A stretch of 64,000 nucleotides of DNA from a candidate division WOR-3 bacterium (lineage in GTDB: Bacteria; Hydrothermota; Hydrothermia; LBFQ01). The position numbers and the translations under genes are program-made. The DNA is taken from the NCBI GenBank assembly GCA_027003075.1, contig JALWYV010000010.1:3900-67899 (forward strand). Reading direction: 5' to 3'. The notes beneath the pieces are model-generated. The model did no database searches and was not told the origin of the DNA. It saw only the letters and a program-made list of their open reading frames with translations. Positions 1,777-45,358 of the stretch are shown here, piece by piece; the stretch's first letter is position 1; every line of letters begins with the position of its first letter.

Positions 1777-1788
1777 CGCGTCCTCCTT

Positions 1789-11056: not shown

Positions 11057-11078
11057 GCCTACCTTAGAATTCCCTCCC

Positions 11079-25942: not shown

Positions 25943-28900
25943 GTGGCCATGCTACTAACAACGGTAGTAAGTGTAACATCTTTGGGAGCAACGAAGGTCG
26001 GGGAGCTGCGCTGGGGGAGGGAGATAGGAGTACCTATCTCAGTATCGCCAACTTACCTGCACTTCTACAGGGATGCAAACGGCCACGAGTACGTAGTGAC
26101 GAACATCCGTGGTGGTGGGGTACTTCTGATAAACGTGGACGATCCTACGAACCCGTACATAGCAAGCGTAGCACTGGCGGATCTGGACACGTTTAGATTA
26201 CTGGCGGATGCCACGGACGAGTTAGGGGTGGCAGACGTAGAGATATTCGGCAGGTGGATGTTCGTGGGTATAGGGAGTAGGAGTAGCGGAGGGATGGAGA
26301 TATGGGACATAAGCGACGGGACTGCACCTGCGAAGGTAGGGGTAGTCTTTTTTGATGGCAGCAGCATAGGGATAAACGGTGGGGTACATACGATATACGT
26401 GGACACCCTGAGGAGCAGGCTGTACGTGAGTTTGAACTTCAGATCCATGCACATCGTAAAGGTAGACACCAACAGACTGGCCGTGGGGGACGTTCTGGGC
26501 GCCCTTGACGTGAGGGATAGTATAAGCGTTGATAACGGAAGTTATCATCATGACATCTACGTCGTCCATGGGACGGGAGTGGATACGGTGTATACGTTTG
26601 CAGGATTCGGTGGCGATGATGTGTGTCCTCCCGGGAAGAAAGGTATAACGAGGTGGATAGTGGTGGACAACATCCTGGATAGAGTGATAGACAGTGGGTA
26701 CGTTGCGAAGTGTAGCGGGTACGGATTCTCGCACAGTGGAAGGATGTGGGGGGACAGCCTGCTGATAAACTTCTACGAGAGTGACGGGAGCGGCTTTGCG
26801 ATATACAGGTTAAACAAATCGGGTGGCATAAGCGTGGCAGAGACGCTGGTCTACTACAGGGCATCCGGTTTTGGGAGGGTGAGCAGCGTACACGAAGGGG
26901 AGATAAAGGACAGCCTGCTGTACGTGGCCTACTACTGGGGAGGGCTGAGGATATACGATCTCAGGGATCCTCGCAGGCCTGCACCGGTGGGGTACTACGA
27001 CTTCTACGACGAGGTAGAGGGGGAGCATATATTCAACGGAGCGAGCGACGTGAAGTTAATGGGCGGGTACATATACGTGGTGGGATACAGTGGATACCCT
27101 TACTACACTCCCGACAGGGACAGTGGGTACCTGTACATCTTTCAGTTCAACAACACCTACACCGTAGGTGAGGAGACGGTAGTGGTTAGAGGGTGCAAGT
27201 ACCCCACACACCTGAGGATAAACCTGACCGTTTCCGACACCAACGTTGAGCATGGGGTTGATATAGGCAGGTCCGACACCGCAGTCGTCAGATTGCCCCT
27301 TGGGAGCTACAGGGTAGAGGTACATCAGGAGTTTGACACCATAGAGGCAGTACTTGACACCTTCACCATGGTGGTGAACGGTACACCGGGTCTTTTCAAT
27401 AGCGGTGGGGAGTGCGCAGGGCTGAAGTACAACGGAGGGGATAAGGTGAAGGTGATCGGAGATGTGACCTCGGCGGTCTTCGTGAGCAACGGAAGGGTAG
27501 TTTACCTTGAGGGGAAGGGAAATGCGTGGAGTGGCCAGTACGTCCTCGGCAGAGGGGAGGAGGTGGCCATGGCGGGAGAAAGGGACGTCTGTATGGATCA
27601 CGACATCGTATGGATAAGGGGAGACACCCTGAAGTACGCCGCAAAGCCCATAGGAACGTCCGGGGCGATGGTGTTTGACAGCCTGCCCAGGGGTGGAAAC
27701 TGGAAGAACATAAGATTGCTGAACGTTGTAAGGGTGTGGGACACCCTCAACAACTACCTGATGCACGTCTTCTTCGTGGCGGATAGCACCAACGGAAAGA
27801 GCTACGTCGTCCACAACACCTACAGACCCTACAACATATGTCCCATAACCACCTTACCTGCTTTGATAGGCAGTGAGGTGCTGTGGGAGGTGAACGGAGC
27901 GAGTGGTCTGAGCGTGGACGAATGGAGCAGCGGAACTGAAAAACTCCACGTCGTATGGTTGAGCAGAGATACGCTCTACTACGCTAACTGGGATGGAACT
28001 GTGTGGGGCGATACCGCAATACTATCTGTGGGCAGTTTTTCTCGTGTTATAAGGGAGCCTACGGTTAAGGTAGAGGGTGGAGAGGTGTACGTCGGGTGGG
28101 TGGAGACCAACGGCGGCTGGCTCTTTTCTTCCATGACGGGATGGGGGATGTGGAGAAGCGGTGGTCTATGGAGGGACACCTTCCAGATCTACACTGCCCG
28201 TAGCATAAGTCGGGTGCATTATGCCGGTAGGGGGTACTACGTGATGGGGTATACGAACGGTTTCAGGAGTACCTTCACGTCCGAGTTGCTGGCACACGAT
28301 GTAAACAACAATATATCGTTCAACATGACAGATGCGCCCGGAGTTGAGGACGAGTGGCCGTACAGCAGCGTGAGTATAGGCTATCCCACCTACAACTGGA
28401 TCTTCAGGAACGTGTGGGAGGAGAGGGAAGGGTGGAGGAGATGGCTCAAGATAGGTGAGTACGAGTACACCACTCCGATAATGGGCTTCATGAGGGGTAT
28501 AACCCCTGTGTATCGTGGGAACGGTGTTTATGTGGGGGACAGTGGAGGTGTGTACATTGTGGAGGTGGTGAGGGGTGATGTGGCGTTACGGTTGGGTGGC
28601 AGGTACATGGGGAGGTACGGAGTGGGGGATATGGTGATCGTACCTGAGTGGGTTTATGAGGATGGGAAGGTGGAGATAGAAGGTGTTGGAGGTGAAGTGG
28701 TGCTGTACCACTTCAGCGGCAGGGGTGGTGGTACGGGCAGTGGTCCCATGGGTGTAGGCAGGAGGCCTATATCCTCTGCCGTTATAGGGCGAGAATTTGT
28801 AGAGGTTAAGCATGTGGGTGTGGTGAGAATATACGACGCCTCAGGCAGGGAGGTGAGGAGGGTAAAGGTTGAGGGCAAAGGTAAGGTTTACGTTGGTGAT

Positions 28901-28963
28901 CTGCCCTCAGGTGTTTACTTCTTGCGCTTAGGCAGGGAAACGATTAAGTTTATAAGGAGGTAG
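25943..28963 (+). CDS. Large secreted beta-propeller protein with LVIVD-type repeats and a T9SS C-terminal sorting domain
   Basis: 1006 aa. N-terminal repeats of the form ...GGGVLLINVDDPTNPYIASVALADL.../...GGMEIWDISDGTAPAKVGVV... are LVIVD-like. The C-terminus is RIYDASGREVRRVKVEGKGKVYVGDLPSGVYFLRLGRETIKFIRR. Third-position A/T-enriched codon usage differs from the backbone. Confidence 0.6.
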   Translation: MAMLLTTVVSVTSLGATKVGELRWGREIGVPISVSPTYLHFYRDANGHEYVVTNIRGGGVLLINVDDPTNPYIASVALADLDTFRLLADATDELGVADVEIFGRWMFVGIGSRSSGGMEIWDISDGTAPAKVGVVFFDGSSIGINGGVHTIYVDTLRSRLYVSLNFRSMHIVKVDTNRLAVGDVLGALDVRDSISVDNGSYHHDIYVVHGTGVDTVYTFAGFGGDDVCPPGKKGITRWIVVDNILDRVIDSGYVAKCSGYGFSHSGRMWGDSLLINFYESDGSGFAIYRLNKSGGISVAETLVYYRASGFGRVSSVHEGEIKDSLLYVAYYWGGLRIYDLRDPRRPAPVGYYDFYDEVEGEHIFNGASDVKLMGGYIYVVGYSGYPYYTPDRDSGYLYIFQFNNTYTVGEETVVVRGCKYPTHLRINLTVSDTNVEHGVDIGRSDTAVVRLPLGSYRVEVHQEFDTIEAVLDTFTMVVNGTPGLFNSGGECAGLKYNGGDKVKVIGDVTSAVFVSNGRVVYLEGKGNAWSGQYVLGRGEEVAMAGERDVCMDHDIVWIRGDTLKYAAKPIGTSGAMVFDSLPRGGNWKNIRLLNVVRVWDTLNNYLMHVFFVADSTNGKSYVVHNTYRPYNICPITTLPALIGSEVLWEVNGASGLSVDEWSSGTEKLHVVWLSRDTLYYANWDGTVWGDTAILSVGSFSRVIREPTVKVEGGEVYVGWVETNGGWLFSSMTGWGMWRSGGLWRDTFQIYTARSISRVHYAGRGYYVMGYTNGFRSTFTSELLAHDVNNNISFNMTDAPGVEDEWPYSSVSIGYPTYNWIFRNVWEEREGWRRWLKIGEYEYTTPIMGFMRGITPVYRGNGVYVGDSGGVYIVEVVRGDVALRLGGRYMGRYGVGDMVIVPEWVYEDGKVEIEGVGGEVVLYHFSGRGGGTGSGPMGVGRRPISSAVIGREFVEVKHVGVVRIYDASGREVRRVKVEGKGKVYVGDLPSGVYFLRLGRETIKFIRR
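28764..28963 (+). repeat. Copy 1 of a ~200-bp near-identical (about 94% nt identity) duplication encoding the T9SS CTD
   Basis: The sequence ggcctatatcctctgccgttatagggcg...aagtttataaggaggtag recurs at 30091-30290 with ~11 mismatches. Confidence 0.85.
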
Positions 28964-28967
28964 GACG

Positions 28968-30290
28968 ATGGTGATGGTACTTGTGGCGTCGTTTTCTCAG
29001 GTGTGGAGGGTAAGAGGATACTCCTTTCTGCTTCAACCTCACGTCACGAAGATTGATAACACCTGGATGCTGTTCTTGAGATCAAAGGGGTTATGGTATA
29101 TTCTAAACGACACCACGTGGGTGTTGAGGGACAGCACAGGTATGTTTTATCTTGGTCACTATGACAGCGACAGGGATGGGAGAGAGGAGTTGTACTTCTA
29201 CGCATTAAGAAACGGGCCAGATACATTCTACATCTTTGAGGCAGACAGTCTGGGAAACTTTGACATCACAAGAGACAAGGCCGTATACGTAGATATAGCC
29301 TCAGGGAGCAACATGATGATGCCGGGTCCTCCCACGTGTTATTTTGGAGATGCTGACAGGGATGGGTACAGGGACGTGATATGCACACCCTACGCCTACG
29401 ACAGTTCAGTAGTGGGATGTGAATTATGCCCCTGGGCAGTGATGTTTGAAAGTGTAGGCGATAACTTATGGGAGAGGAAAGTTTTGACAAGCGATGCTCC
29501 TCGTTATCCTGCTCCCACGATGATAGACAGCGACAGGGATGGTAAGCCTGAGTTTGTGGGCAGTGGAGTGATATACGAGGTTGTAGGGGATGACTCGGTA
29601 GAGGAAGTAGCGAGGTTTAACCTGCCCCGTGCCAGTTATGCCTTGATGGTAAACGACGCCGATGGAGATGGTAGGCCGGAGATAGTGCTGTACGGTTTCG
29701 GTGGTACGAGTGGTATTCTCTACTTCCACGTCTACATCCTTGAGGCCGATACCGATAACTCATGGAACGTTGTCAAGCATATGATTATTGATAGTAGTGG
29801 GGCTGTGTGGATGGGTAGCGGCAACAGTGGAGATATAGACGGGGATGGGAGGCCTGAGTTGTTGATGGGGGGGTTTGGAAGGGTAAGGGTGTTGAAAGCC
29901 GTTGGCGATGACGATTACGAGGAGATAGGGGTGTTGAACGGTAGCATCTCGGACGTATCCGTCAGCAACGTCTACGACATGGATGAAGATGGACTTATGG
30001 AGTTTGCCGTGTCCTATTATTACGGCAGTGGTGTAGGCACGACCGTGGGTTACGAGTACGCACCTTTGAGTGTTGGGGAGCGAGAGGATAGGCCTATATC
30101 CTCTGCCGTTATAGGGCGTGAATTTGTAGAGGTTAAGCATGTGGGTGTGGTGAGGGTATACGACGCCTCAGGTAGGGAGGTTAGGAGGGCAGAGGTTGAG
30201 GGCAAAGGTAAGGTGTACGTTGGTGATCTACCTTCAGGTGTTTACTTCTTGCGCTTAGGCAGGAAAACGATTAAGTTTATAAGGAGGTAG
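28968..30290 (+). CDS. FG-GAP / VCBS-repeat protein with a T9SS C-terminal sorting domain
   Basis: 440 aa. Repeated Ca-binding-like DxDxDGxxE loops (DSDRDGREEL, DADRDGYRDV, DSDRDGKPEF, DADGDGRPEI, DIDGDGRPEL). The CTD (...VYDASGREVRRAEVEGKGKVYVGDLPSGVYFLRLGRKTIKFIRR) is near-identical to that of the upstream gene. Confidence 0.65.
   Translation: MVMVLVASFSQVWRVRGYSFLLQPHVTKIDNTWMLFLRSKGLWYILNDTTWVLRDSTGMFYLGHYDSDRDGREELYFYALRNGPDTFYIFEADSLGNFDITRDKAVYVDIASGSNMMMPGPPTCYFGDADRDGYRDVICTPYAYDSSVVGCELCPWAVMFESVGDNLWERKVLTSDAPRYPAPTMIDSDRDGKPEFVGSGVIYEVVGDDSVEEVARFNLPRASYALMVNDADGDGRPEIVLYGFGGTSGILYFHVYILEADTDNSWNVVKHMIIDSSGAVWMGSGNSGDIDGDGRPELLMGGFGRVRVLKAVGDDDYEEIGVLNGSISDVSVSNVYDMDEDGLMEFAVSYYYGSGVGTTVGYEYAPLSVGEREDRPISSAVIGREFVEVKHVGVVRVYDASGREVRRAEVEGKGKVYVGDLPSGVYFLRLGRKTIKFIRR
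30091..30290 (+). repeat. Copy 2 of the ~200-bp CTD-encoding duplication
   Basis: See copy 1 (28764-28963). Confidence 0.85.
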
Positions 30291-30291
30291 C

Positions 30292-30750
30292 TCACTCCTC
30301 TATTATCTCCCTCTGTATCCCGTAGGGCGTTGGCGTCTCCTTGATTATCCTGTACTTCCGGAACTTTACCGCCCACCTGCGGAACTCAAACTTTAACTTC
30401 ATCCGGTAGGACCTCTGCTCCAGAAATACAGTCGTATCCACCGTTGGTGTCTTTTTATAGTGCCACGTGTACTCTACCACCACCAACCCCGGTTTCACCT
30501 TAGAGACGTCGTGGATCGTATGTTTGTACGGTATACCGTACCTCTTAAAGTAATTTTGCCAGTACTTAACGAAGTCTTTGTAAGGGGTATACCTGCGGGA
30601 AACTCCGTCTATGAGCATGTAAGCCTTCTTAAAGTCTCCACTCTCTATCGCCTTTAGATAGGCGTGGGCAACGGCCTCCGGGTCAAGGGTGTTGACGTTC
30701 ACCGTACAGCCTGCAATTCCCAATACTGCAATCAGAACGAGTTTTTTCAT
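30292..30750 (-). CDS. Hypothetical lipoprotein (NTF2-like/DUF4878-like fold suspected)
   Basis: Signal peptide with lipobox (VLGIAGCTV). 152 aa. Confidence 0.4.
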   Translation of the reverse strand: MKKLVLIAVLGIAGCTVNVNTLDPEAVAHAYLKAIESGDFKKAYMLIDGVSRRYTPYKDFVKYWQNYFKRYGIPYKHTIHDVSKVKPGLVVVEYTWHYKKTPTVDTTVFLEQRSYRMKLKFEFRRWAVKFRKYRIIKETPTPYGIQREIIEE

Positions 30751-30776
30751 CTTACTACCCCATTCTAAGGTCGGGA

Positions 30777-31412
30777 TCAGATCTCCTCTAACGGCCGGTG
30801 TTTGATTATTTCGCCCTCAACTATGAAGACGACATCCTCTGCTATGTTTGTGGCCAGATCGGCTATCCTCTCAAAGTTCTGGGCTATGCTCACGGTCTTA
30901 AGGGCCACGGGAGTGGGCAGGGTATCAACCGCCCTCTTCAGTATCTTGTCCCTCAGGGCGTCCACAACGTAATCTGATTTCCAGATCTCCCTCGCGAGCT
31001 CGGCGTCCCGGTTTTTAAAGGAGGAGTAAGCCTCCACGAAGGCCCTGCGGGATAGATCCCGTATCAGGGCTATATCCTCCCAGAGGTCCCCGAGGTTCTC
31101 CCCCTTCTCCCGGAAGAACTTCACGTCCCGAGCCACGTTCTCGGCGTGGTCCCCGATCCTCTCAAGATCGTTGTTGATCTTCAGGGCCATGAGTATCTCC
31201 CGCAGAGGGGAAGCCTCCGGATGGTACAGGGCTATGGTCTGGACTATGAGTTCGTCTATCTCTATCTCAAGGGCGTTTACCTTCTTCTCGTTGCTCAGGG
31301 TCTCCTCGGGGCGGTCAAGGGCGTTATCTATCATATCAACGATGGTGGAGTACATCTCGTCCAGTCTGGACTCAATCTTCTGGATGGCCTGCTCCAGAGG
31401 GCTATAGCTCAA
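30777..31412 (-). CDS. phoU: Phosphate signalling complex protein PhoU
   Basis: 211 aa. Two PhoU repeats with conserved ...NNDLERIGDHAENVAR... and ...NFERIADLATNIAEDV.... Confidence 0.85.
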   Translation of the reverse strand: MSYSPLEQAIQKIESRLDEMYSTIVDMIDNALDRPEETLSNEKKVNALEIEIDELIVQTIALYHPEASPLREILMALKINNDLERIGDHAENVARDVKFFREKGENLGDLWEDIALIRDLSRRAFVEAYSSFKNRDAELAREIWKSDYVVDALRDKILKRAVDTLPTPVALKTVSIAQNFERIADLATNIAEDVVFIVEGEIIKHRPLEEI

Positions 31413-32067
31413 ACGTCTCCCCCGGCTTCAGTACTACCACCTTTGCGGTATCTCCTACCAGAGCAGCGAACTTTTCGGGGTCGGCCTTGATGAGCGGGAA
31501 GGTGTTATAGTGCATGGGTATAACAACTTTAGGCTTTACGAACTTCACGGCTCTGGCCGCCTGCTCCTCGTCCATTGTGAACCTTCCACCGATCGGAACG
31601 AGGAGGACGTCGGGGTGGTACATATCCCCTATGAGCTTCATGTCGGAGAAGAGACCGGTATCGCCAGTATGGTAGATCGTAAAACCGTCCATACGGACGA
31701 CCACGCCGGTGGGATCCCCCTCTTCGGCCGTGTGCCACGCCTGAGTAAAGGAGACCTGCACACCGGTTCCTCCCGCGTCCACGAAACCACCTATGTTCAT
31801 CGGCTCCACCCTCTCAAGACCGGACTTAACGACCAGTTCGTACTGGGAGGCAAAGACGGCCCCCGTCCGCTTTGCTATCTTAACCGCATCCTCAAAGCCG
31901 TGATCCCCGTGGCTGTGGGTCACTATGACCACGTCCGCCCTGTCTATATCTTCGGGTGATTTCAGGGAAGAAGAGGGGTTCCCGCTTATCCACGGGTCTA
32001 TCAGGACAACCCTACTCCCCTCTATTTTAAATGCCGCATGCCCGAGCCATGTGATCTTGACTGCCAT
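31402..32067 (-). CDS. Metallo-beta-lactamase-fold metal-dependent hydrolase (UPF0173 family)
   Basis: HxHxDH motif VIVTHSHGDHG. ~220 aa, the typical size for the MAVKITWLGHAAF...-starting family. Confidence 0.7.
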   Translation of the reverse strand: MAVKITWLGHAAFKIEGSRVVLIDPWISGNPSSSLKSPEDIDRADVVIVTHSHGDHGFEDAVKIAKRTGAVFASQYELVVKSGLERVEPMNIGGFVDAGGTGVQVSFTQAWHTAEEGDPTGVVVRMDGFTIYHTGDTGLFSDMKLIGDMYHPDVLLVPIGGRFTMDEEQAARAVKFVKPKVVIPMHYNTFPLIKADPEKFAALVGDTAKVVVLKPGETFEL

Positions 32068-32151
32068 AGATGATATTTTAAACCGGAAGCCTTCCTGATG
32101 GGCTGCCGATCACGGCTAAGAAAGTTTGAACCCACTTTAGAATTGTAAGAG

Positions 32152-33798
32152 TTGAAGCGCCTCTTTCTTCCCCTTGTCCTGTCCATAGTGATGCCCATCT
32201 TTATAGGTGCCGCCTATCTGAGGAGGATAAACGATCCGTCCCTGAAGGGTAAAGACGTGAGCAACTACACCCGTCGCATCCCGCTCGGTATAGTCAGGGG
32301 TACCCTGCTTGACAGGAAGGGAAGACCCCTTACCATGCCAGAGGTAAGATGGAAGGTTATCCAGTTCAACCTCCGCAGGGAAATTGAGGAGGTCGATCTG
32401 AAAGGCCTCAGGATACTTCTAAGTAGGAAGTTTAAGGTGAAGCCTTACCGTTACCTCGGTTTTAGCGATATAAAGGGGCTATCTCAGGAAGACGTTTACG
32501 AGGTCATGAAGCACAGGACGTTCTTCAGGAGCATAGAAGTCGTCCCCACGGTCAACCACAGGCTGGTATGCCGGGAATGTTTCCACACCGTAGGACGGAC
32601 GACCTCTGACGGCGAGGGACTTTTCGGGCTTGAAAAGCTGTATAACAGACACCTTAAAGGGGAACTGGGGCACGTAATCTTAAAGGTAGATGCCCGGGGC
32701 AACCTGATAGACGAGCCAAAGGTTCTGATCTATCAAAACCCTACGAACGTACGGACATATTTAGATCTGGACCTTTACCGACTCGTTGACTCTCTCATGG
32801 CGCCGTACGGAAGGGGAGCAGCCTTCGCCTTCAACCCGAAGACGGGGGAAGTGTACCTTATATACTCCAGACCGGGGCCCTACGATACGGCCGCCTCACC
32901 GGAAGATTCCCCTCTTCTTAACCGTGCAATCGCCGGACTGTACCCACCCGGTTCAACCTTCAAACCCTTTGTCGCCCTGCTCGCTCTCAAGCATGGGGTT
33001 ATAGATACGACCTTTGGGGTAGGGTGTCGGGGATACGTTCGGCTGGGAAGGAGGAGGTTCAGGTGCTGGTCCGTTCACGGGTACACGCGACTCATGAAGG
33101 CCATAGCCCAGTCCTGTAACGTCTTCTTCTACAACGTTGGCGCCCGTTTCGGTCCTGACCGTTTCGTTAAGGCCGTCCACTCCACCGGTATATTCGGCAG
33201 GAAGCTTACCCCCCTTCCGGAGGAGGTTCCCTCCCGTTTTCCCCGAAAGGCCCGGTACTACGGTTCCGTACTCAACTACTCCATCGGTCAGGGGGAGATA
33301 CTGGTCACTCCTACATTTTTAGCCGTAGAGGCCGGACTGATCGGAAACCGTGGGTGGGTCGTCCTTCCACGCTTCTCACCTCTGGACAGGCCCGAAACCC
33401 TCCGGGTGGATGCCCCGGACTGGGCTTACGAGAAGGTCAGAGAGGGGATGCTCGCCGTGGTTGAGTGGGGGACGGCCATGGCCTCCCGCATACCCGGTTT
33501 CCGGTACGGGGGTAAGACGGGAACCGCCCAGAACCCCCACGGGGAGGATCACTCCCTGTTCATAGCCTTCGCCCCCTACGACGACCCGACGTTTGCCGTG
33601 GCGGTGGTCGTGGAGAACGCCGGACACGGTAGTTCGGCCGCCGCACCTATAGCCGCCATGCTAATAAGGGAACACTTCGGCCTGAAGGAACTTCCCCTGT
33701 ACTACGCGTGGAGGGTAAACGCGGGTGTATCGGAGCGCAGGGATACGGTGGATCGGTTGAAGCTCCTTGATGAAATAGAAGAGGAGACAGATATGTGA
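32152..33798 (+). CDS. mrdA: Penicillin-binding protein 2-type peptidoglycan D,D-transpeptidase
   Basis: N-terminal TM anchor. Dimerisation domain. Transpeptidase motifs STFKPF (SxxK), SCN (SxN) and KTGTA. 548 aa. Confidence 0.8.
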   Translation: MKRLFLPLVLSIVMPIFIGAAYLRRINDPSLKGKDVSNYTRRIPLGIVRGTLLDRKGRPLTMPEVRWKVIQFNLRREIEEVDLKGLRILLSRKFKVKPYRYLGFSDIKGLSQEDVYEVMKHRTFFRSIEVVPTVNHRLVCRECFHTVGRTTSDGEGLFGLEKLYNRHLKGELGHVILKVDARGNLIDEPKVLIYQNPTNVRTYLDLDLYRLVDSLMAPYGRGAAFAFNPKTGEVYLIYSRPGPYDTAASPEDSPLLNRAIAGLYPPGSTFKPFVALLALKHGVIDTTFGVGCRGYVRLGRRRFRCWSVHGYTRLMKAIAQSCNVFFYNVGARFGPDRFVKAVHSTGIFGRKLTPLPEEVPSRFPRKARYYGSVLNYSIGQGEILVTPTFLAVEAGLIGNRGWVVLPRFSPLDRPETLRVDAPDWAYEKVREGMLAVVEWGTAMASRIPGFRYGGKTGTAQNPHGEDHSLFIAFAPYDDPTFAVAVVVENAGHGSSAAAPIAAMLIREHFGLKELPLYYAWRVNAGVSERRDTVDRLKLLDEIEEETDM

Positions 33799-33829
33799 AT
33801 GGGAAATATCCACCCGAGTACCTTTCTGC

Positions 33830-35790
33830 TATAGAATCCTTTACTAAATTACTGAAGTGGAGGGAGAATGATACGGAAAATTAGGATAAGGAATTTTAGA
33901 AGTCTAAAAAATGTAGAAATATCACTAGAAGATAAACTTACTGTTTTGGTTGGTGAAAATGATACTGGTAAAACATCAATAATAGATGCATTAAAAATAG
34001 TTTTTGAAGGTAAAAATCCTGAAGTTGATGATTTTCATTGGGGGACAGATGAGATTAGTATAGAAGTTGAACTTAATGACAGGTATTTCGTTAAACAATT
34101 TTTAAAAAATGATGACAATAGTATAGAATCCAAAAGCATGATTAAGATAAAAAAGGAAGCTCTAGATAGGTTTCAGAATGAAGCGGATTCCATAGATCTG
34201 GATAATTTAAAAAATAACAACGAAAACGGGGAAATATATAAACGTCTTAGAGATTTAGCCAGCACTTTGTGTATCAAAATTAGGAGTAATAGCAAAATTG
34301 ACACTATTAAGGATAAAATTATAAACAAAATTAAAGAGTATAAAAATGTCGGATTTATTGAATGTAATATACCTACATATAATATCTATTTTCTGGATGG
34401 AAAACATTTCGAGAGTATATCTAAATTTTTTCAAGAAATTTTCTTTAAAGAAAAAAGTAAGAATATATGGAATGAAGAAGTTGAAGAGGGTAGGTCTATT
34501 AAAGATATAATTAAGGAAAAACTTGATATATATGCTGAAAATTTAAAATCGGAAATAGAAAATAAAGGTATAAAAGATAAGATAAAAGCTTTTCTTCCAG
34601 AGTTGCAGGAAATATCTATTAACCCCGTTTTTGAGCCGAGTAGTATAAAAATAGGTATTGAGGTTCAGCTTTTAGAAACTGGGGGCAAGAAGATCCGTGT
34701 TGACAAAAAGGGTGATGGAACGAAAAGAAGAATTACTATGGCCTTATTAGAATATAAAAGGTCTCAAGATAAAGAACCGTCACTCTATGTATTTGATGAG
34801 CCTGATACACATTTGCACGTAAAGGCACAGGTTGATCTATTAAATATAATAAGAAAATTCAATGAAAATGGAAAACAAGTAATTATAGTTACCCACTCGC
34901 CATTTATAATGAATGCTGTAAGGCCACAAGAAATAAGATTACTTTTATTACAGAATGGGGAAACCATCGTAAAATCTCTATCACTAGAAAAAGATATTGA
35001 GTGGGCTTTAAAGAGATTGGGAATTGAAAATGTAATATTATTTTTCTCACGAAAAATCTTGATTGTTGAGGGGAAAACTGAAGAGGTATTTATTCCTCTA
35101 ATGTATGAAAAATTGTTTAACACAAGCCTTTACAGCGATTTGGTTAAAGTAGTTAAAAGAGAAGGTATAACGGACGTTCCAAGATTTGCAAAAGTATTAT
35201 CTGAGTTTATCAAACCTAAAGATATATTTATATTGATAGATAATGATGCGGATGAGAGAACAAGGGATATAATAAATACTCTTCAAATACCGGAAGAAAA
35301 TATATTTAAGATAGGCAATAAAGAATTTGAGGACGCCTTTGAACCCGAAGTTATTTATGAAGCTTGGAAAATATTTACTGAAACTAGAGGAAAGAAAATC
35401 GGACCTAGTTGGACTATTAAAAATATAAGAGAATTAAGGGATAAATGTGTAAAAGATGGTTTAAAATTCAGTGAAAAATTAAAGGAGTTAAATAAAAAAG
35501 GTTCAATGAGAATGGATAAGCCGACGTTTGCTCAAGCTTTGGCCGAATATTGCAATAAGGAACATTTACCCGAGCAGTTTATTGATTTGTTGAATAAACT
35601 AAGATATTAAATAGAATGAAAATACCTTTATTAATGGTTCATATGAATGTTCTAGCTGTTATTATAAACCCCCAATTTAAGATTTGCTGGTGTAAGCAAT
35701 CTTCACGTTTATATACTACTCTTCCGATTCTCCGATTTGACAGAGCTATTTTTGTAGTGGGATCTTCGTTCCTTTGTAAGATATCTTGCT
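33830..35790. mobile_element. Compositionally foreign AT-rich islet (~2 kb) carrying the OLD-family nuclease gene; no integrase or direct repeats recognised
   Basis: GC content shifts abruptly immediately after the PBP2 stop (33798) and returns near 35790. The single cargo gene is a defence-type nuclease. Confidence 0.55.
33868..35610 (+). CDS. OLD-family ATP-dependent endonuclease (N-terminal ABC-type ATPase + C-terminal TOPRIM); class-1 OLD / GajA-like
   Basis: 580 aa. Walker A GENDTGKTS, Walker B plus H-loop LYVFDEPDTHLH, TOPRIM glutamate motif ILIVEGKTEEVF, and DxD motif ILIDNDADE. The gene is strongly AT-rich (many AAA/AAT/ATA codons) in an otherwise GC-rich window. Confidence 0.85.
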   Translation: MIRKIRIRNFRSLKNVEISLEDKLTVLVGENDTGKTSIIDALKIVFEGKNPEVDDFHWGTDEISIEVELNDRYFVKQFLKNDDNSIESKSMIKIKKEALDRFQNEADSIDLDNLKNNNENGEIYKRLRDLASTLCIKIRSNSKIDTIKDKIINKIKEYKNVGFIECNIPTYNIYFLDGKHFESISKFFQEIFFKEKSKNIWNEEVEEGRSIKDIIKEKLDIYAENLKSEIENKGIKDKIKAFLPELQEISINPVFEPSSIKIGIEVQLLETGGKKIRVDKKGDGTKRRITMALLEYKRSQDKEPSLYVFDEPDTHLHVKAQVDLLNIIRKFNENGKQVIIVTHSPFIMNAVRPQEIRLLLLQNGETIVKSLSLEKDIEWALKRLGIENVILFFSRKILIVEGKTEEVFIPLMYEKLFNTSLYSDLVKVVKREGITDVPRFAKVLSEFIKPKDIFILIDNDADERTRDIINTLQIPEENIFKIGNKEFEDAFEPEVIYEAWKIFTETRGKKIGPSWTIKNIRELRDKCVKDGLKFSEKLKELNKKGSMRMDKPTFAQALAEYCNKEHLPEQFIDLLNKLRY

Positions 35791-36270
35791 GTTTAACGGA
35801 AAACTCCGCTTCAACCTGAGTCCCAGATACAGGAGATACTCCCACGCCAATATCACCTCAAGCGAGTACGGGGGTTCGGCTTCTCTAACCGTCTTTGCCT
35901 TCGTTGGCATACTTCGGGCCCAGATAGACTACACGGCTCCCCGGAGGGCTGTATAGGGGCTGTACGTATACACCCGACTGACCTTTATAACGCAGGTAAG
36001 GGGCTTCTCCCTCGTCCTATTGGCCACGGACCCCTTCAATCTCTGGAAGTACGAGATAACGGTTGAAAGGAAAAATTACCGCGTCTACAAGTACAACCGC
36101 ATGAAATGGCCCAACGTCAACCTTAACTCTTCAGTACAACCTCAGCAGGGACTTCAGGCTGCCGCGGAAGAGGAAGGTAGGGATAGAGAACACAGGGGAA
36201 AGGGTGCTGAAGTAGAATGCGAAAGTCCACCTCACAAATGAACGCCTTACATCGGTAGAATACTTTCGCT

Positions 36271-37197
36271 ATGATTGTACTGTTCGTCGTTTCTTCCCCC
36301 GACGCAGGCGAGATGGAGATGGGCGGAAAGACCTACCTCAGGTACAGCGTGGAGGCGGCCTCTCCCTACAATAACTACGTCGCTCTGGACCGTATGTACT
36401 TCATAGCAAAGTTCAAAAAGGGTAACCTCCTCGTACGTTTCACGACAGACGTTGCTCCCCTTACGAAACTCGTGGGCGAGACCTCCGAAAAGAGCGCCTA
36501 CTCCGTTTACGTGAAGCACGCCTACGTACAGTGGAAGGCCATGGACAACGCCGCCCGAACCCTTAAAGTACAGTTTGGTGTGGCTCCCACTATCTGGCCG
36601 GGGATGGAGGAGAAGCTGTGGGGGCACCGGTTCGTTGAGAAGACCACCTACGACTACTACAAACTTGAACCCACGGCCGATATGGGTCTGGTGTTCAGGT
36701 ACACGTGCAAGTTGCTGCCGTGGGAGTTGCACACCGGCGTATACAACGGAAACGGTTTCAAGAACCTTGAGAACGACCCCCACAAGGACGTCATGGGACG
36801 CCTCTCCGTATATCCTGCGGAACCCTTTGGTATGGGGAAACTCGTCGGCATCCATATCTTTGGCCATACCACCACACAGGGAATCGGCTTTAAGGACAGG
36901 TACATCGGTGGGATCTCCCTCAACCATTCCCTCCTGACCCTTATGCTATCCCACGCTTACTATACCTCTTCATATAAGTCCTACGTAAAGGGAGGGTCAG
37001 CGTTTGCCATCCTCCACCTCCTTGAGGGACGCCTTAACGTCTTCGGGAGGTACGACCTGATGGACGATTACACCGACCCCTTCATCGTGGGTGGTCTATC
37101 CTACAGGGTAAGCGGTAACCTCCGGTTCGCCCTTTCCTACAAACAGAGGGGCGGGGACAATGCCGTAGTTAGCTTCCATACGGAGGCCAGATTTTAG
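36271..37197 (+). CDS. Outer-membrane beta-barrel porin (phosphate-selective porin O/P-like by context); the 5' end appears truncated with no signal peptide
   Basis: 308 aa. Alternating amphipathic beta-strands, a C-terminal ...SFHTEARF with terminal Phe, and a position directly upstream of pstS. An in-frame stop lies 5 codons upstream of the first ATG, and the N-terminus [14 protein letters not shown] is not a credible signal peptide. Confidence 0.5.
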
Positions 37198-37211
37198 GTA
37201 AACCGGAAATC

Positions 37212-38201
37212 ATGTGGAAAAGGTTCGTAATTTTTGCGGGTATAGCCCTGTTTGCTGTGGGGTGTGGTGGAGGCAGGAGAACGAAGATAGTTTCCGTGGA
37301 CGGTTCGTCTACGGTGTACCCGATAACCGAGGCCGTGGCCGAGGAGTTCCAGAAGGACAACCCAGACATTAAGGTGACCGTTGGCATATCGGGTACGGGG
37401 GGCGGGTTCAAAAAGTTCTGCCGCGGAGAGACGGACGTGAACAACGCCTCTCGTCCTATAAAGGCCTCGGAGATTGAGATGTGCAAAAAGAACGGTATAG
37501 AGTTCTACGAGCTCCCAATCGCCTATGACGCCATAACCGTTGTGGTGAATCCGGATAACACCTGGGTGGACTATCTGACGCTTGAAGAACTCCGGAAGAT
37601 ATGGGCGCCGGAGTCTCAGGGAAAGATAACGAAGTGGAGTCAGATAAGGGAGGGATGGCCAGATAAGGAACTCCACCTCTACGGCCCCGGTGTGGACTCC
37701 GGCACGTTTGACTACTTTACCTCCGTAGTAATCGGAAAGGAAGGGGCGAGCAGGGGGGACTACACTTCGTCGGAGGATGACAACGTCCTGGTTCAGGGGG
37801 TGGCATCCGATAAGTACGCCCTTGGATACTTCGGCCTGGCCTATTACCTTGAGAACAAAGATAAGCTGAAGGCCGTACCCATAGACGCCGGTAACGGCCC
37901 GGTAATGCCCACGGTTGAAAACGTCGTATCCGGGAAATACGTCCCCCTTTCCCGTCCCCTCTTCATCTACGTAAGTAAAAAATCCTACGAGACCAAACCC
38001 CACGTCAAGAGGTTCGTGGACTACTACCTCACCCACGTTAAGGACCTGGTCAGGGATGTGGGATACGTAGAGCTTCCCGATGAAGCGTACGAACTCGCCA
38101 AAAAGCGCCTTAAAGAGAGGAGAACCGGTAGCGTCTTCTCCGGGAAAACGAAGGCAGGAATGAAGATAACGGACCTGCTCAAACTGGAAGGCGAGAGGTA
38201 G
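37212..38201 (+). CDS. pstS: Phosphate ABC transporter substrate-binding protein PstS
   Basis: 329 aa. Signal peptide with lipobox. Motifs ...[22 protein letters not shown]...[26 protein letters not shown].... Confidence 0.85.
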
Positions 38202-38229
38202 GTACCCCATACGGGGTTAAAATGCCGCG

Positions 38230-38946
38230 ATGAAACGTTTCCTCGCCCTCATGGAGAAGGATATTCGTCTGTCCCTACCGTGGTTTTTAACCAATCTGTT
38301 CGTACTCCTCCTCTTCGTTGGGTTATCAATCTTCTACGTCGGACGTAAGAACGATCTGGGAGTAATATTCCTGTTTCTGGCAATCGCCGGCGTCTTCCTC
38401 TGGTCCATCTTCGCCGGTATAGCCACGTACTTCAACGAAAGGGATGGAAGGGTTTACGAGTTCGTTAACACCCTGCCTGTAAACCGGACCCTGATACTCC
38501 TCTCCAAAGAGGTATGGCTGGTCGTTCAGGCCACCCTGTACATGGGTATAGTTACGTTCGGCTCCTTTGCACTCCTGAAGGTGTCCGGAAGTCTGGACGT
38601 TCCGAACGTAAAAGAGATGCTCACCTTCTCCGATACCTTCAAATTCGTACTGTCCGGGTACTTTCGCGTTCTTATTACTCTGACGGCGGGATTGCTCTCC
38701 GCCGCGCTTATAAAGGATATGCCCTTCCGGTGGTTCCTCGCCATCCTGCTTCTCATCGTACTCGTATGGTCGGTGGGATGGATAGACCTATCGCCCCTGC
38801 TCGGAGTGAAGGGGGTGACCGTTAGAACTCCTGAGGACGTGTCCAGAGCCCTTAACGCACAGGTTATTAACGAGACTCTCAGGTTTCTGGTATCCCTGAT
38901 ACTTCTGCTCGCCGGGGGTTTATGGATAGAGAGGCGGGGTTACTGA
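38230..38946 (+). CDS. Hypothetical polytopic membrane protein (6 TM)
   Basis: 238 aa, hydrophobic. No ABC ATPase partner adjacent. Confidence 0.4.
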   Translation: MKRFLALMEKDIRLSLPWFLTNLFVLLLFVGLSIFYVGRKNDLGVIFLFLAIAGVFLWSIFAGIATYFNERDGRVYEFVNTLPVNRTLILLSKEVWLVVQATLYMGIVTFGSFALLKVSGSLDVPNVKEMLTFSDTFKFVLSGYFRVLITLTAGLLSAALIKDMPFRWFLAILLLIVLVWSVGWIDLSPLLGVKGVTVRTPEDVSRALNAQVINETLRFLVSLILLLAGGLWIERRGY

Positions 38947-38978
38947 CCCGCCTTTCGGGCGTACAATAGGCGGTTGAT

Positions 38979-39632
38979 ATGAGGATATTCGTGGATTCCG
39001 CCGATGTTGAGGAAATAAAGAAACTTCACGAAATGGGTTTTATCTCTGGTGCCACGACGAATCCGAGTCTTGTGGCCCGGACGGGGCGTGAACCCCGGGA
39101 GATATACAGGGAGCTGGCGGAGATGCTTGAACACGTCTCCGCCGAGGTGGTTGCGGAGGACGCTGAGGGGATGTACAGGGAAGGTAAAGAGCTCGCGTCC
39201 ATACACCCTAACATCGTGGTTAAGGTGCCGTTCACTCCCGAAGGTCTGAAGGCCGTGGGGAAGTTAAAAGCGGACGGCATAAGGGTTAACGTCACCCTCA
39301 TATTCTCCGCAGCACAGGCCCTTATAGCAGCGAGGGCTGGCGCCGACTTCGTCTCCCCCTTCATCGGCCGTATAGACGACATCGGTTATTCCGGGGTTGA
39401 GATAGTGAGGGAAACGGCGAAGATCTTCATGCTCTACGACCTGCCCACGGAGATCATAGCAGCCAGTATAAGGCATCCGGCCCACTTCATAGAGGCGGCG
39501 AGGGCTGGGGCGCACATAGGGACGGTTCCCCCGGCCGTGATATGGAAGCTCCTCAAACATCCCCTTACGGATATAGGCCTTGAGAAGTTCCTCTCCGACT
39601 GGCGTAAGGCTCAGGAGAACCGGGCCGGGTAA
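38979..39632 (+). CDS. tal: Transaldolase / fructose-6-phosphate aldolase (short Tal/Fsa subfamily)
   Basis: 217 aa. MRIFVDSADVEEIKKLHEMGFISGATTNPSL... and ...VKVPFTPEGLKAVGKLKADGIRVNVTLIFS... Confidence 0.8.
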   Translation: MRIFVDSADVEEIKKLHEMGFISGATTNPSLVARTGREPREIYRELAEMLEHVSAEVVAEDAEGMYREGKELASIHPNIVVKVPFTPEGLKAVGKLKADGIRVNVTLIFSAAQALIAARAGADFVSPFIGRIDDIGYSGVEIVRETAKIFMLYDLPTEIIAASIRHPAHFIEAARAGAHIGTVPPAVIWKLLKHPLTDIGLEKFLSDWRKAQENRAG

Positions 39633-40420
39633 TGGAAAAGGTAAAGGCCGCCTTCTTTCTTATTCTGGCCCTTACGATAGGGGCGGTCGGCCTGTTGTGG
39701 CTTAAGAACTTCTCCCTGAAGAAGAGGTACCACTACGGGGCCTCTTTTAAGACGGCCGGTTTCCTCGGGAACGGTGACCCCGTCAGCCTTCAGGGGGTGA
39801 ACGTCGGGAGGATAGAGCGGATAGAGATATACACCGACAGCGTAATTATCCGATTCTACACGGAGGGGATAAGGTTGAGAGAGGGGGCGTACGCCCGCAT
39901 AGAGAACGAGGGTGTGGTGGGGAACCGGAAACTGGCGATATATCAGGGGAAGGGGAGGTTCCTCCCGGAGGGGGCCGTCATAAAAGGAGAGGAGACGCCC
40001 ACGTTCACGGATTTCGTCTTCCTGATAGACCGCATCCTGCAGAGCATAGAGAGGATATCCGCCCGTACGGATACCACCCTGTACAACGCCAACGTTCTGC
40101 TTTTGAGAACGAATAAGGAACTGGTCGTTCTGAGCCGTGAACTGAGGGAGCTGATCTCATCCACCAGAGATCTTACGGATAATGCCAACGCCAAACTGGA
40201 CGCCGTATCTTACCAGATCCTCCAGCTGGCCAACCGCTTAGACGAAACGGCAACGGTAGTTGACTCCTTCGTGCGCGCCGACGGTACCGTTCAAAGGCTC
40301 ATGACGGAGGATTCCCTTTACAACGAGTTGAACCTGACCGTTAAGGAACTCCGGAGTCTGATAGAGGATATCAGAAAGAACCCCGGAAAGTACATAAACG
40401 TAAACGTTAAACTCTTCTGA
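39632..40420 (+). CDS. mlaD: MCE/MlaD-family periplasmic lipid-transport protein
   Basis: N-terminal TM helix followed by an MCE domain (...GDPVSLQGVNVGRIERIEI...). A C-terminal coiled-coil-like region. Confidence 0.6.
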   Translation: MEKVKAAFFLILALTIGAVGLLWLKNFSLKKRYHYGASFKTAGFLGNGDPVSLQGVNVGRIERIEIYTDSVIIRFYTEGIRLREGAYARIENEGVVGNRKLAIYQGKGRFLPEGAVIKGEETPTFTDFVFLIDRILQSIERISARTDTTLYNANVLLLRTNKELVVLSRELRELISSTRDLTDNANAKLDAVSYQILQLANRLDETATVVDSFVRADGTVQRLMTEDSLYNELNLTVKELRSLIEDIRKNPGKYINVNVKLF

Positions 40421-40421
40421 T

Positions 40422-41204
40422 ATGCCCGTACACGTCGCCTCGGTAGTTCTTGGGGGGTTGCTCCTCGGCCTCATCTCCTTCTTTGTGGTCTCCAGAAACA
40501 TGGCCTTTGCCACCACCGGTGTTGCGCATGCGATGTTCGGAGGTATAGCCTTCGCGGTCGTGTTGGGGTTTGACCCCACGGTCGGAGGTATGCTCTTCGG
40601 TCTACTTATGGGTCTCGGTATCTACCTATTCGGGGAAAAATTGCCCCGCGATGCCGTGATAGGAATACTGTTCTCCTTCCTTATGAGCGTGGGAGCCATA
40701 GCCCTGCGCTTCTATCGTGGGTACGCCAACCTCCTGTGGTCCTACATGTTCGGCAACATAACTACGGCGACGTGGTTTAACGTCCTCTCAATTGCCGCAA
40801 TACTTATCGTGGGGCTGGCGTTCATGTTCTGGAAGTATGAAGGTCTCAAGCTCTACCTCTTCAGCGAGGAGATAGCCATGGCCGAGAAGGTACCCGTTAA
40901 CGTTTACCACGGTGTCCTGCTTCTATTTGAAACCCTCACGATTATACTCGTCCTCAGGGTCTTCGGATCCATACTGGCCTCATCCCTCGTCGTCGTCCCG
41001 GCGATGGTGTCCTTCGTCCTCTTCAGGGGTTTCCTGCGGTCCTTTCTCATGAGCGGCCTCATAGCAGTCATGCTCTCCGTCCTGGGGTACGCCCTTGCCT
41101 TTTACCTTGACCTCCCTTACGGTGCGACCACCACGTCTCTGGCCTTCGTCCTTTTCGTCCTGGTCTGGGCATTCAGGAGGGGAGGGGTATGGTTGAGGGT
41201 TTAG
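40422..41204 (+). CDS. ABC-3 family (ZnuB/MntB-like) metal ABC transporter permease
   Basis: 260 aa with 8 hydrophobic segments and an ABC-3-like pattern. No cognate ATPase or substrate-binding protein adjacent. Confidence 0.45.
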   Translation: MPVHVASVVLGGLLLGLISFFVVSRNMAFATTGVAHAMFGGIAFAVVLGFDPTVGGMLFGLLMGLGIYLFGEKLPRDAVIGILFSFLMSVGAIALRFYRGYANLLWSYMFGNITTATWFNVLSIAAILIVGLAFMFWKYEGLKLYLFSEEIAMAEKVPVNVYHGVLLLFETLTIILVLRVFGSILASSLVVVPAMVSFVLFRGFLRSFLMSGLIAVMLSVLGYALAFYLDLPYGATTTSLAFVLFVLVWAFRRGGVWLRV

Positions 41205-41773: not shown

Positions 41774-41781
41774 AATAATCC

Positions 41782-42636: not shown

Positions 42637-42671
42637 TACGTCTGTATTCTCCGCATTACAATACACGCACT

Positions 42672-45280: not shown

Positions 45281-45358
45281 ATCCTCGCCTCCTTCGTAGA
45301 TTATACTGCCGAAAGCCCGGTCTAATAGGGGATACTTTCCGGGTGACCTCTTATGCCA

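Follow-up and report, generated by a model that had tools for sequence, protein, structure and literature searches.

How a thermophilic bacterium came to carry a single, strongly AT-rich gene between two of its housekeeping operons, and what that gene may do there, is the question raised by a stretch of 64,000 nt from a candidate division WOR-3 bacterium (GCA_027003075.1, contig JALWYV010000010.1, positions 3,900-67,899 of the forward strand), referred to here as the window. The gene encodes a protein of the OLD family, termed the window OLD, and lies in an islet of about 2 kb between the PBP2 gene (mrdA) and a gene for an outer-membrane porin. The islet is best interpreted as a horizontally acquired single-gene cassette that holds an intact OLD enzyme and probably provides a stand-alone defence, a reading to which a probability of about 0.7 is assigned. 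Membership of the OLD family and horizontal origin are, taken jointly, highly probable, and a role against phages or other mobile DNA is somewhat favoured. The locus holds a known kind of gene and not a new system; what lifts it slightly above an ordinary example is its archaeal affinity, its mixed class features and an undescribed association of small KTSC or WYL genes with the clade to which it belongs.

Domain architecture and catalytic residues of the window OLD

On its sequence the protein is an OLD-family nuclease in which an ABC-type ATPase is joined to a TOPRIM domain, as the initial annotation had proposed. The search with profile hidden Markov models suggested there as a check recovered both domains well over their cut-offs, namely Pfam AAA_15 at residues 1-347 (E-value of 3.1e-40) and OLD-like_TOPRIM (PF20469) at residues 392-460 (E-value of 2.3e-13; score of 50.9 against a cut-off of 23.2). 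The Old, GajA and AriA models of PADLOC span E-values of 1e-25 to 1e-41, the best match being the AriA model (2.5e-41), which is restricted to the ATPase half (residues 1-347), followed by the P2-type Old model (3e-40) and many GajA models (1e-23 to 6e-38). No NCBIfam equivalog reaches its cut-off for the protein, the retron Eco8 effector and PtuA giving weak matches. TsOLD (6P74), the Class 1 enzyme of Thermus scotoductus, is the only solved OLD reached by sequence with phmmer, through an alignment that covers the P-loop and the stretch from Walker B to the TOPRIM domain.

All the motifs quoted in the initial annotation, comprising Walker A, Walker B with the H-loop, the TOPRIM glutamate and the DxD, were located in the 580-residue product of the only islet gene (Table 1), and their conservation was assessed in an alignment (A1) of 35 sequences that are 40-65% identical to the window OLD. 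Lys-35 of the P-loop is conserved in at least 90% of these sequences. In the Walker B and D-loop region, which phmmer aligns with the Walker B of TsOLD, residues Asp-310, Glu-311, Asp-313, Thr-314, His-315, Leu-316 and His-317 are invariant, and the motif KKGDGTKRR probably represents the equivalent of the ABC signature, judging from its place ahead of Walker B. The H-loop aligns with the sequence THSP of TsOLD and of a retron ATPase, while the TOPRIM glutamate motif aligns with LLVEG of TsOLD.

Roles for the catalytic residues can be proposed from the mutational work on TsOLD and BpOLD (PMC7049728, PMC6755086). By analogy with Glu-377/Asp-381 of TsOLD and Glu-400/Glu-404 of BpOLD, Glu-401 would be a ligand of metal A and Glu-405 a ligand of metal B, and Asp-458 and Asp-460, corresponding to Asp-431 and Asp-433 of TsOLD, would complete the metal A site (PMC7049728). 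Glu-486 and Glu-488 probably form the second pair of ligands for metal B, in the manner of Ser-478/Glu-480 of TsOLD and Thr-506/Glu-508 of BpOLD (PMC7049728). In the C-terminal helical domain, Lys-533 is a candidate counterpart of the Class 2 catalytic lysine (Lys-562 of BpOLD), with Lys-551 as the alternative. The reading frame contains no frameshift and no internal stop, and the ratio of nonsynonymous to synonymous substitution rates (dN/dS) between the window OLD and its nearest homologues is 0.09-0.16; the gene is under purifying selection and has been maintained as a working protein.

Composition and boundaries of the islet

The GC content was profiled in 300-nt windows, in 30-nt steps, and in 1-kb bins. 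The 300-nt windows display a GC content of 0.63-0.64 at 33300-33749, 0.26-0.34 at 33750-35700 and 0.48-0.52 from 35700 onward, and the 30-nt steps place the fall at approximately 33750-33870 and the subsequent rise at approximately 35810-35820. The islet extends from 33799, directly after the PBP2 stop at 33798, to approximately 35815, which agrees with the earlier description of a composition that flips at that stop codon. It constitutes the sole GC trough of its kind in the 64 kb, since its two 1-kb bins have values of 0.296 and 0.359 and all other bins lie between 0.44 and 0.60.

The composition and codon usage of the OLD gene are foreign to the host, as claimed in the initial annotation and as the codon analysis suggested there now documents. 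The gene has a GC content of 0.297 against 0.53-0.54 in the flanks, a GC content at third codon positions (GC3) of 0.24 against 0.667 ± 0.078 in the 43 other long open reading frames (ORFs) of the window, and a codon adaptation index of 0.435 against 0.706 ± 0.053 in the same 43 ORFs, which also served as the reference set of the index; both measures are thus about 5 standard deviations from the host. The protein is rich in Lys, Ile, Asn and Glu. Written with host codon preferences it would be encoded at a GC content of 0.454, and therefore about half of the deficit derives from codon choice and about half from amino-acid composition.

Homologues and probable horizontal origin

The exact protein was found in this genome only, in an 81.8-kb ENA scaffold and two Logan contigs, and the next-best homologues, at 59-65% identity, are metagenomic. 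The closest of them (65%) adjoins genes for a thermosome and a Hef-type helicase-nuclease, and its context is read as archaeal for that reason. Named archaeal homologues belong to Archaeoglobaceae (54% identity), Methanocaldococcus fervens (49%) and Methanobacterium/Methanobrevibacter (45-48%), while the named bacterial homologues, at 40-46%, come from gammaproteobacteria, Chloroflexi, Firmicutes and Chlorobiales. In a neighbour-joining tree, the window OLD and five metagenomic sequences cluster together (92% bootstrap); in 94 of 100 replicates the window OLD is placed with the four named archaeal sequences and is separated from every one of the nine named bacterial ones. Across archaea and bacteria the distribution of the gene is patchy, and one member of the clade is plasmid-borne, on pDrdII of Deinococcus, where it is accompanied by a WYL gene. 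The best reading of these observations is a horizontal acquisition from an archaeon into a thermophilic bacterium.

The relatives of the host are consistent with this origin. Among species-representative genomes, the three nearest relatives, in which PBP2 has 77, 72 and 56% amino-acid identity (loci L008, L009 and L010), carry no OLD gene near PBP2, and no OLD gene lies upstream of the porin in the relatives that possess the porin-pstS pair (L174, L176 and L177). The fraction of the residues IVYWREL is 0.433 in host proteins and 0.445 in the OLD protein; by a published linear relation, the host value reportedly translates into a growth temperature of about 70 °C.

The initial annotation had called the acquisition recent. 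Its horizontal nature stands, but the low GC content is no clean clock, because the genes of the clade are AT-rich in every host examined and about half of the deficit reflects amino-acid composition. The closest homologue has a GC content of 0.336 against 0.46-0.51 upstream (0.415 and 0.541 in its short downstream flanks), and the OLD gene of M. fervens, at 0.26 against 0.32, lies below even its AT-rich archaeal host. A viral origin was considered and set aside: no member of the clade was found in IMG/VR, where the best match is 30% identical over the ATPase only, and the best matches among GenBank phages, P2 old included, have 20-31% identity.

Structural features and class assignment

OLD proteins are classified by gene context (PMC6755086, PMC10568477). 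Class 1 genes stand alone, Class 2 genes lie beside a gene for a UvrD-like helicase, Class 3 members belong to retrons and Class 4 comprises the split AriA/AriB pair (PMC6755086, PMC10568477). As a single gene, the window OLD is Class 1 by context. In searches with the full-length predicted model, which has a predicted local distance difference test score (pLDDT) of 85.9, the best fold matches were TsOLD (6P74) and GajA, and Class 1 was not told from Class 2; because the ATPase head dominates such searches, the C-terminal region was modelled separately. The resulting model of residues 380-580 (201 residues; pLDDT of 90.8) matched, at E-values up to 1e-3, only Class 2 C-terminal structures, namely 6NJW, 6NJX and 6NJV from Xanthomonas and 6NK8 from Burkholderia (E-values of 6e-7 to 7e-6 and TM scores of 0.57-0.62 over 211-217 columns, with 19-22% identity), and TsOLD (6P74) was not matched at that threshold. 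The catalytic C-terminal region of the window OLD is thus predicted to be Class 2-like.

In the predicted model, residues 493-579 form a C-terminal helical domain of about 90 residues with five to six helices. Between the helix at 463-472 and the strand at 479-482, where an Insert-3 helix would separate TOPRIM alpha-3 from beta-4, there would be about six residues with one three-residue turn, and no clear Insert-3 is apparent in the model. A mostly helical insertion is predicted at approximately 96-245, the position at which TsOLD and GajA have their dimerisation domain. TsOLD, the sole solved Class 1 enzyme, has neither the Insert-3 helix nor a C-terminal helical domain, and in it an arginine is provided by a loop (PMC7049728). 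The window OLD accordingly combines features of two classes: it is an isolated gene without a clear Insert-3, like Class 1, yet it has no TsOLD-type C-terminus, and it possesses the TOPRIM and helical domain with invariant lysines of Class 2 but no adjacent helicase. Neither a reverse transcriptase with an ncRNA, as in Class 3, nor the split organisation of Class 4 is found, the protein being fused.

Comparison with the characterised systems displays the same mixture. Among Class 1 proteins (P2 Old, TsOLD, Vc OLD of Vibrio cholerae and YbjD), the window OLD has 14-19% identity to TsOLD and 28% identity to P2 Old over residues 278-460. In contrast with TsOLD, it has the helical domain of about 90 residues with invariant lysines, and whereas Class 1 members are described as isolated genes, its relatives usually have a KTSC or WYL neighbour. 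With Class 2 and GajA enzymes (B. pseudomallei 6NK8, X. campestris 6NJW and Bacillus cereus GajA 8SM3) it has in common the TOPRIM domain followed by a multi-helix C-terminus and presumably a two-metal mechanism to which the helical domain contributes a lysine. It differs from them in the absence of a clear Insert-3 helix, in a length close to that of Class 1 proteins and in the absence, both here and in 26 loci of its clade, of the adjacent GajB helicase that defines the class. PARIS AriA/AriB (Class 4) and the retron OLDs (Class 3, such as Retron-Eco8, with PtuA-type ATPases) belong to the same ABC ATPase family. PARIS is nevertheless split, with a DUF4435 protein as AriB, whereas the window OLD is fused and has no DUF4435/AriB gene; retron OLDs are accompanied by a reverse transcriptase and a non-coding RNA, whereas here no reverse transcriptase ORF is present, positions 33000-37000 give no Rfam match and the NCBIfam scores lie far below the cut-offs.

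Class 2 is nested inside the diversity of Class 1, and many OLD clades, with archaeal and bacterial members mixed, are uncharacterised (PMC12796447); the mixed features of the window OLD agree with such nesting. The clade of the window OLD resembles Cran1 of Sulfolobales (clade U11) and the U1-U11 groups of Yang et al. 2025 (PMC12796447) in belonging to the OLD family with a strong archaeal representation, but Cran1 is vertical and essential whereas the window gene is patchy and foreign (PMC12796447). The hallmark motif of the clade, DEPDTHLH, was absent from Dataset EV1 of that study, in which partial sequences were scanned, as were four RefSeq accessions of the clade, three of them with records as old as the paper or older. 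The window OLD is therefore unplaced in the U1-U11 scheme.

Small neighbouring genes in the OLD clade

The initial annotation had left two options, a single-gene Class 1 OLD or an OLD with an unrecognised small partner. The former describes the locus itself; the latter describes the clade, though not its member in the window. All ORFs within 3 kb of the OLD gene were clustered in 26 clade loci, in which the OLD protein aligns over its full length with the window OLD at 38-65% identity and which came from look-ups of exact proteins, from a single metagenome scan and from one plasmid match. Two neighbour families, and no others, recur, and one or the other lies beside the OLD gene in 17 of the 26 loci; the window has neither. 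KTSC genes (PF13619; 66-79 residues; E-values of 1e-24 to 2e-28) occur at 12 loci, in one of which the end of a contig truncates the gene, and a WYL-only protein of about 90-100 residues (PADLOC WYL model, 2e-5; Pfam WYL below its cut-off) occurs at six, with both present at L108. The small gene may be upstream or downstream of OLD, co-directional or convergent, and is usually 1-170 nt away. At L181, which is the plasmid pDrdII of Deinococcus wulumuqiensis (NZ_CP031161.1), the WYL gene and the start of OLD overlap by 4 nt, and OLD is followed by a gene for a 285-residue hypothetical protein. Neither family was found in the other approximately 180 loci compared, which include about 60 more distant OLD/AAA_15 loci, and none of the 26 has a neighbouring UvrD/PcrA/Rep-like GajB.

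In the tree, KTSC and WYL loci are intermixed and loci devoid of such a neighbour are nested among them. The window OLD and its nearest homologues L003 and L005, which likewise have no KTSC or WYL gene, form one solo subclade between the WYL-bearing L094 and the KTSC-bearing L088 and L095. A link between KTSC and OLD was not found in the literature searched, in which the nearest statement is an unpublished remark on KTSC with HerA-like ATPase/endoDNase conflict systems, and PADLOC has no KTSC model.

One interpretation, offered tentatively and judged somewhat less than even in probability, is that the OLD lineage of the window gene matches neither of the described classes. Its usual and probably ancestral form would combine a Class 2-type C-terminus and the absence of GajB with a KTSC or WYL partner serving as sensor, regulator or antidote, and the subclade of the window, L003 and L005 would have dispensed with the partner and crossed from archaea into a thermophilic bacterium. 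KTSC and WYL could then be tiny nucleic-acid- or ligand-binding proteins, interchangeable across the tree, and the lineage could represent a further OLD class, a possibility advanced with the same reserve. If the small proteins are functional partners, KTSC, a domain with almost no literature, would gain a testable role, and a two-gene OLD system free of a helicase would join the known set. The pattern concerns the clade and not the locus in the window.

The second-closest homologue, L005, lies in a defence island that contains GmrSD, MNT/HEPN, a KAP/AAA_16 NTPase and a type I restriction-modification system alongside OLD. After the OLD gene, at 9874-11693 of that locus, are a second AAA_15 ATPase (419 residues) and a 185-residue protein, possibly a separate two-gene system.

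Proposed function and alternative explanations

The cassette would have passed from an archaeal-dominated gene pool of a hot environment into the spacer between mrdA and the porin-pstS operon of a thermophilic diderm bacterium, leaving its neighbours undisrupted. In the mechanism proposed, the ATPase would operate as a nucleotide-dependent switch or sensor, dimerising via the helical insertion, and would license the TOPRIM site (Glu-401, Asp-458 and Asp-460; Glu-405, Glu-486 and Glu-488; a lysine of the helical domain) to nick or degrade nucleic acid. An invader would trigger the activation, and the target might be the DNA of the invader, as for Vc OLD and TsOLD, which nick or degrade DNA (PMC12392090, PMC7049728), or host tRNA, as for P2 Old, in which cleavage of host tRNA leads to abortive infection (PMC12445682). 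Blocked replication or abortive infection would be the outcome. Anti-phage phenotypes are described for three single-gene OLDs, P2 Old, Vc OLD and E. coli YbjD (PMC12445682, PMC12392090, PMC13261556), and for these only, leaving single-gene OLDs the least understood class. The locus would be a clean and minimal case of defence-gene transfer, with about 2 kb, a single gene and no mobility machinery between two housekeeping operons of a thermophile. Mechanistic differences between the classes could become clearer through a homologue that is predicted to be thermostable, retains all catalytic residues and has a C-terminus like that of Class 2.

Several observations weigh against this reading. The defence role would rest on family precedent from outside the clade of the window OLD, which shares just 14-28% identity with any characterised OLD. 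Housekeeping genes surround the locus, which is not a defence island, and most members of the clade have a KTSC or WYL neighbour, so that the solo enzyme could be deregulated, differently regulated or weakly active. Defence is not to be assumed for archaeal-type OLDs, because the archaeal OLD Cran1 has a non-defence role (PMC12796447). As regards the origin, the donor is unsampled, with a best match of 65% identity, and the tree was built by neighbour joining from 35 sequences, of which only 14 have named organisms. The comparison of the PBP2-porin junction in relatives, which the initial annotation had suggested, bore out the absence of OLD beside PBP2 but yielded no empty site in which PBP2 is directly followed by the porin, as the closest PBP2 loci (L008-L010) and the porin-pstS loci (L174, L176 and L177) have different neighbours; the adjacency of PBP2 and porin is not conserved in the relatives compared, and exact-protein look-ups of PBP2 and the porin returned the same genome only.

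The gene might instead have a role in DNA metabolism, as Cran1 has in Sulfolobales, or no current function, as a silent passenger that is neutral or decaying. A cell-cycle role is known for an archaeal OLD (PMC12796447), the window gene is surrounded by housekeeping genes and follows mrdA on the same strand after 69 nt, without a predicted terminator in that interval, and its poor codon adaptation to the host would limit expression. However, the Cran1-type clade is vertical and tracks the species tree (PMC12796447), whereas the window gene is patchy, foreign and absent from host relatives. Decay is at odds with a frame free of frameshifts and stops, intact catalytic residues and a dN/dS of 0.09-0.16 in the subclade, and homologues occur in defence contexts at L005 (type I restriction-modification, GmrSD and HEPN/MNT), L003 (HicAB) and L089 (a methyltransferase with HicA). 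A non-defence role or a silent passenger is for these reasons considered unlikely.

Two further alternatives concern the integrity of the islet and the completeness of the system within it. Both Logan contigs of SRR14510437 that cover the region (30260-35878 and 35851-43197) are 100% identical to the window, and the first of them, L002, runs mismatch-free through PBP2 and OLD to about 60 nt inside sequence of host-like GC content. The break of that assembly at 35851-35878, near the right edge of the islet, could together with the metagenomic source of the sequence suggest that an AT-rich archaeal-type fragment was joined chimerically into a bacterial contig, but the next contig, L092, overlaps L002 by 28 nt and continues into the porin, the 28-mer concerned is unique in the window, and the ENA scaffold is continuous over both joins with 4 mismatches in 21.7 kb. 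Even if the Logan and ENA assemblies share a sample and are thus not fully independent, such an artefact is extremely improbable. A two-component system, in which OLD would act with a small partner encoded in the AT-rich tail by the 67-residue ORF or the antisense 68-residue ORF, is suggested by the small KTSC gene (about 70 residues) or WYL gene (about 100 residues) that adjoins OLD at two-thirds of the related loci and by the length of the tail, which matches such a gene. The tail, given as 180 bp in the initial annotation, measures about 200 nt; the 67-residue ORF reported there is present, but its claim to be a partner did not survive. It runs over the AT-to-GC boundary into host-like sequence, in searches with four small ORFs it and the overlapping antisense ORFs drew no Pfam or PADLOC match with the threshold relaxed to E = 1, and a full HMMER search of 1.84 billion representatives gave the 67-residue ORF no prokaryotic homologue. 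The lone HMMER match, a vertebrate-looking protein of 1218 residues with Ig repeats, owes its score to the addition of six repeats, each worth about 30 bits at 28% identity, and was rejected as chance. KTSC and WYL profiles, run with filters off against all six frames of 33700-36300, gave negative or near-zero scores only, and tblastn found nothing in the window. The tail shares no DNA similarity with the flanks of homologous OLD loci, the similarity being confined to the coding sequence with limits at 33863 and 35573, and RNA folding of the tail does not differ from that of shuffled sequence (z = -0.13). A partner hidden in the tail is thus very unlikely, and the single-gene cassette remains the preferred reading.

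Flanking genes and other features of the window

The genes on both sides of the islet are native and intact (Table 1). PBP2 matches Pfam Transpeptidase (5.6e-46) and NCBIfam pbp2_mrdA (8e-83) with a GC3 of 0.67, and it was not clipped by the insertion, since its acidic C-terminal tail resembles that of the relative L009. In the left junction a consensus scan gave promoter and terminator matches at chance level only. The porin had been described as decapitated, a view contradicted by the relatives: the 30 nt at 36248-36277, which span the start codon and include an in-frame TAG five codons upstream, are 90.6% identical to the corresponding positions of relatives with neither OLD nor PBP2 upstream, whose proteins begin alike with a short hydrophobic stretch (MIALMI.., MVVLL.. 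and MLWVF..), one of them being 309 residues long. Porin homologues have 309-359 residues, and the distant ones carry PF07396 (phosphate-selective porin), which fits the conserved pairing with pstS; the porin-PstS pair is kept in L174, L176 and L177. No ORF with a family match occurs in the spacer upstream of the porin. Its final 25 nt or so (TAGAAT...ATG) are conserved in relatives, which have similarly long gaps upstream of the porin (707 nt in L174).

Gene calls within 10 kb on either side of OLD comprise PhoU, a metallo-beta-lactamase-fold protein, PBP2, the porin, PstS, transaldolase, MlaD, an ABC-3 permease, PAP2, an LptD-like protein, UbiA and three Uma2 genes. In agreement with the initial annotation, which had noted no adjacent GajB, AriB or integrase, this region contains no UvrD/GajB-like helicase, AriB/DUF4435, reverse transcriptase or integrase/recombinase gene. 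Elsewhere in the window no UvrD/GajB-like, AriB-like or integrase gene was found among the gene calls (approximately 1-21 and 24-45.6 kb) and the Pfam matches of eight long ORFs at 48-64 kb. The 64 kb contain no tRNA gene, the islet junctions have no flanking direct repeats longer than 11 nt and no meaningful inverted repeats, and an Rfam scan of 33000-37000 gave no match. None of the integrative-island hallmarks sought at the islet (a recombinase, a tRNA or att target and flanking repeats) was found.

Table 1. Coordinates of the islet, its flanking genes, the motifs of the window OLD and the small genes of related loci. Positions are those of the window unless a locus is named.
Feature	Position	Strand	Remarks
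PBP2/MrdA transpeptidase gene (left flank)	32152..33798	+	Public gene call starts at 32191; native, intact
Left junction spacer	33799..33867	+	69 nt; holds the GC drop; ribosome-binding site GGAGG, 5-9 nt ahead of the OLD start codon (ATG)
OLD-family nuclease gene	33868..35610	+	580 residues; sole long and sole credible ORF of the islet
Walker A / P-loop, GENDTGKTS	33952..33978	+	Residues 29-37; G29, E30, N31, D32, G34 and S37 invariant
KKGDGTKRR	34705..34731	+	Residues 280-288; G282, D283, G284, T285 and R287 invariant
Walker B and D-loop region, LYVFDEPDTHLH	34783..34818	+	Residues 306-317
H-loop, THSPF	34891..34905	+	Residues 342-346; H343, S344, P345 and F346 invariant
TOPRIM glutamate motif, ILIVEGKTEE	35056..35085	+	Residues 397-406; E401, G402 and E405 invariant
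TOPRIM DxD, IDNDAD	35236..35253	+	Residues 457-462; D458 and D460 invariant
KEFED	35320..35334	+	E486, E488 and D489 invariant; directly after TOPRIM strand beta-4
K533-F-S535, C-terminal helical domain	35464..35472	+	K533, S535 and K551 invariant
AT-rich tail	35611..35815	.	About 200 nt, apparently non-coding
Orphan ORF of the tail	35616..35819	+	67 residues; crosses the AT-to-GC boundary
Orphan ORF of the tail, overlapping antisense	35639..35845	-	68 residues
Gene-free spacer	35816..36270	.	About 455 nt; host-like GC (0.48-0.57); upstream of the porin gene
Outer-membrane porin gene (right flank)	36271..37197	+	Native; related to phosphate-selective porins; not truncated
pstS	37212..38201		Follows the porin gene; Pfam PBP_like_2, 2.7e-45
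KTSC genes	L088 1871-2080; L089 7778-8002; L095 488-697; L096 5184-5399; L097 359-559; L100 1423-1632
KTSC genes	L103 9906-10130; L105 9796-10032; L106 5881-6087; L108 3374-3580; L110 12-101; L111 7046-7228
WYL genes	L006 9934-10242; L094 2289-2588; L107 711-986; L108 2191-2346; L112 7708-7974; L181 956-1246		L006 is from M. fervens

Further observations were made on the sequences around the islet. The Logan break at 35851-35878 lies about 40-60 nt past the islet edge and could reflect an islet-less strain variant or population heterogeneity, or a mere dip in coverage. The TAGAAT about 9 nt before the porin ATG and the in-frame TAG are conserved in three related genomes (window 36248-36277; L174 7976-8007; L177 2920-2940), and the porin N-termini are very short and hydrophobic without a basic n-region, a sign, perhaps, of a leaderless transcript or of an incorrectly assigned start codon. 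In L009, the closest relative by PBP2, about 3.7 kb with three ORFs (595, 266 and 283 residues; 218-3965) separate the metallo-beta-lactamase-fold gene from PBP2; as these two genes adjoin in the window, both sides of PBP2 are variable in the lineage.

Farther from the islet, three tandem genes of the Uma2 family (PF05685), putatively restriction-endonuclease-like, lie on the minus strand at approximately 43625-45300, the first and third with 79% DNA identity, and the relatives L177 and L178 have Uma2 genes and arrays of DUF5618 genes after the porin-pstS pair. Two adjacent large FG-GAP-like genes (25943..28963 and 28968..30290) share at their 3' ends a 201-nt direct repeat (28763-28963 and 30090-30290; 94.5% identical), which encodes the same C-terminal sorting-type domain in both. 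Finally, the lowest GC3 among the host ORFs (0.41, with a mean of 0.67) is that of a 492-residue ORF without a Pfam match (61107-62585), which is located between BamB/PQQ-repeat-like genes and could be another, less marked outlier in composition.

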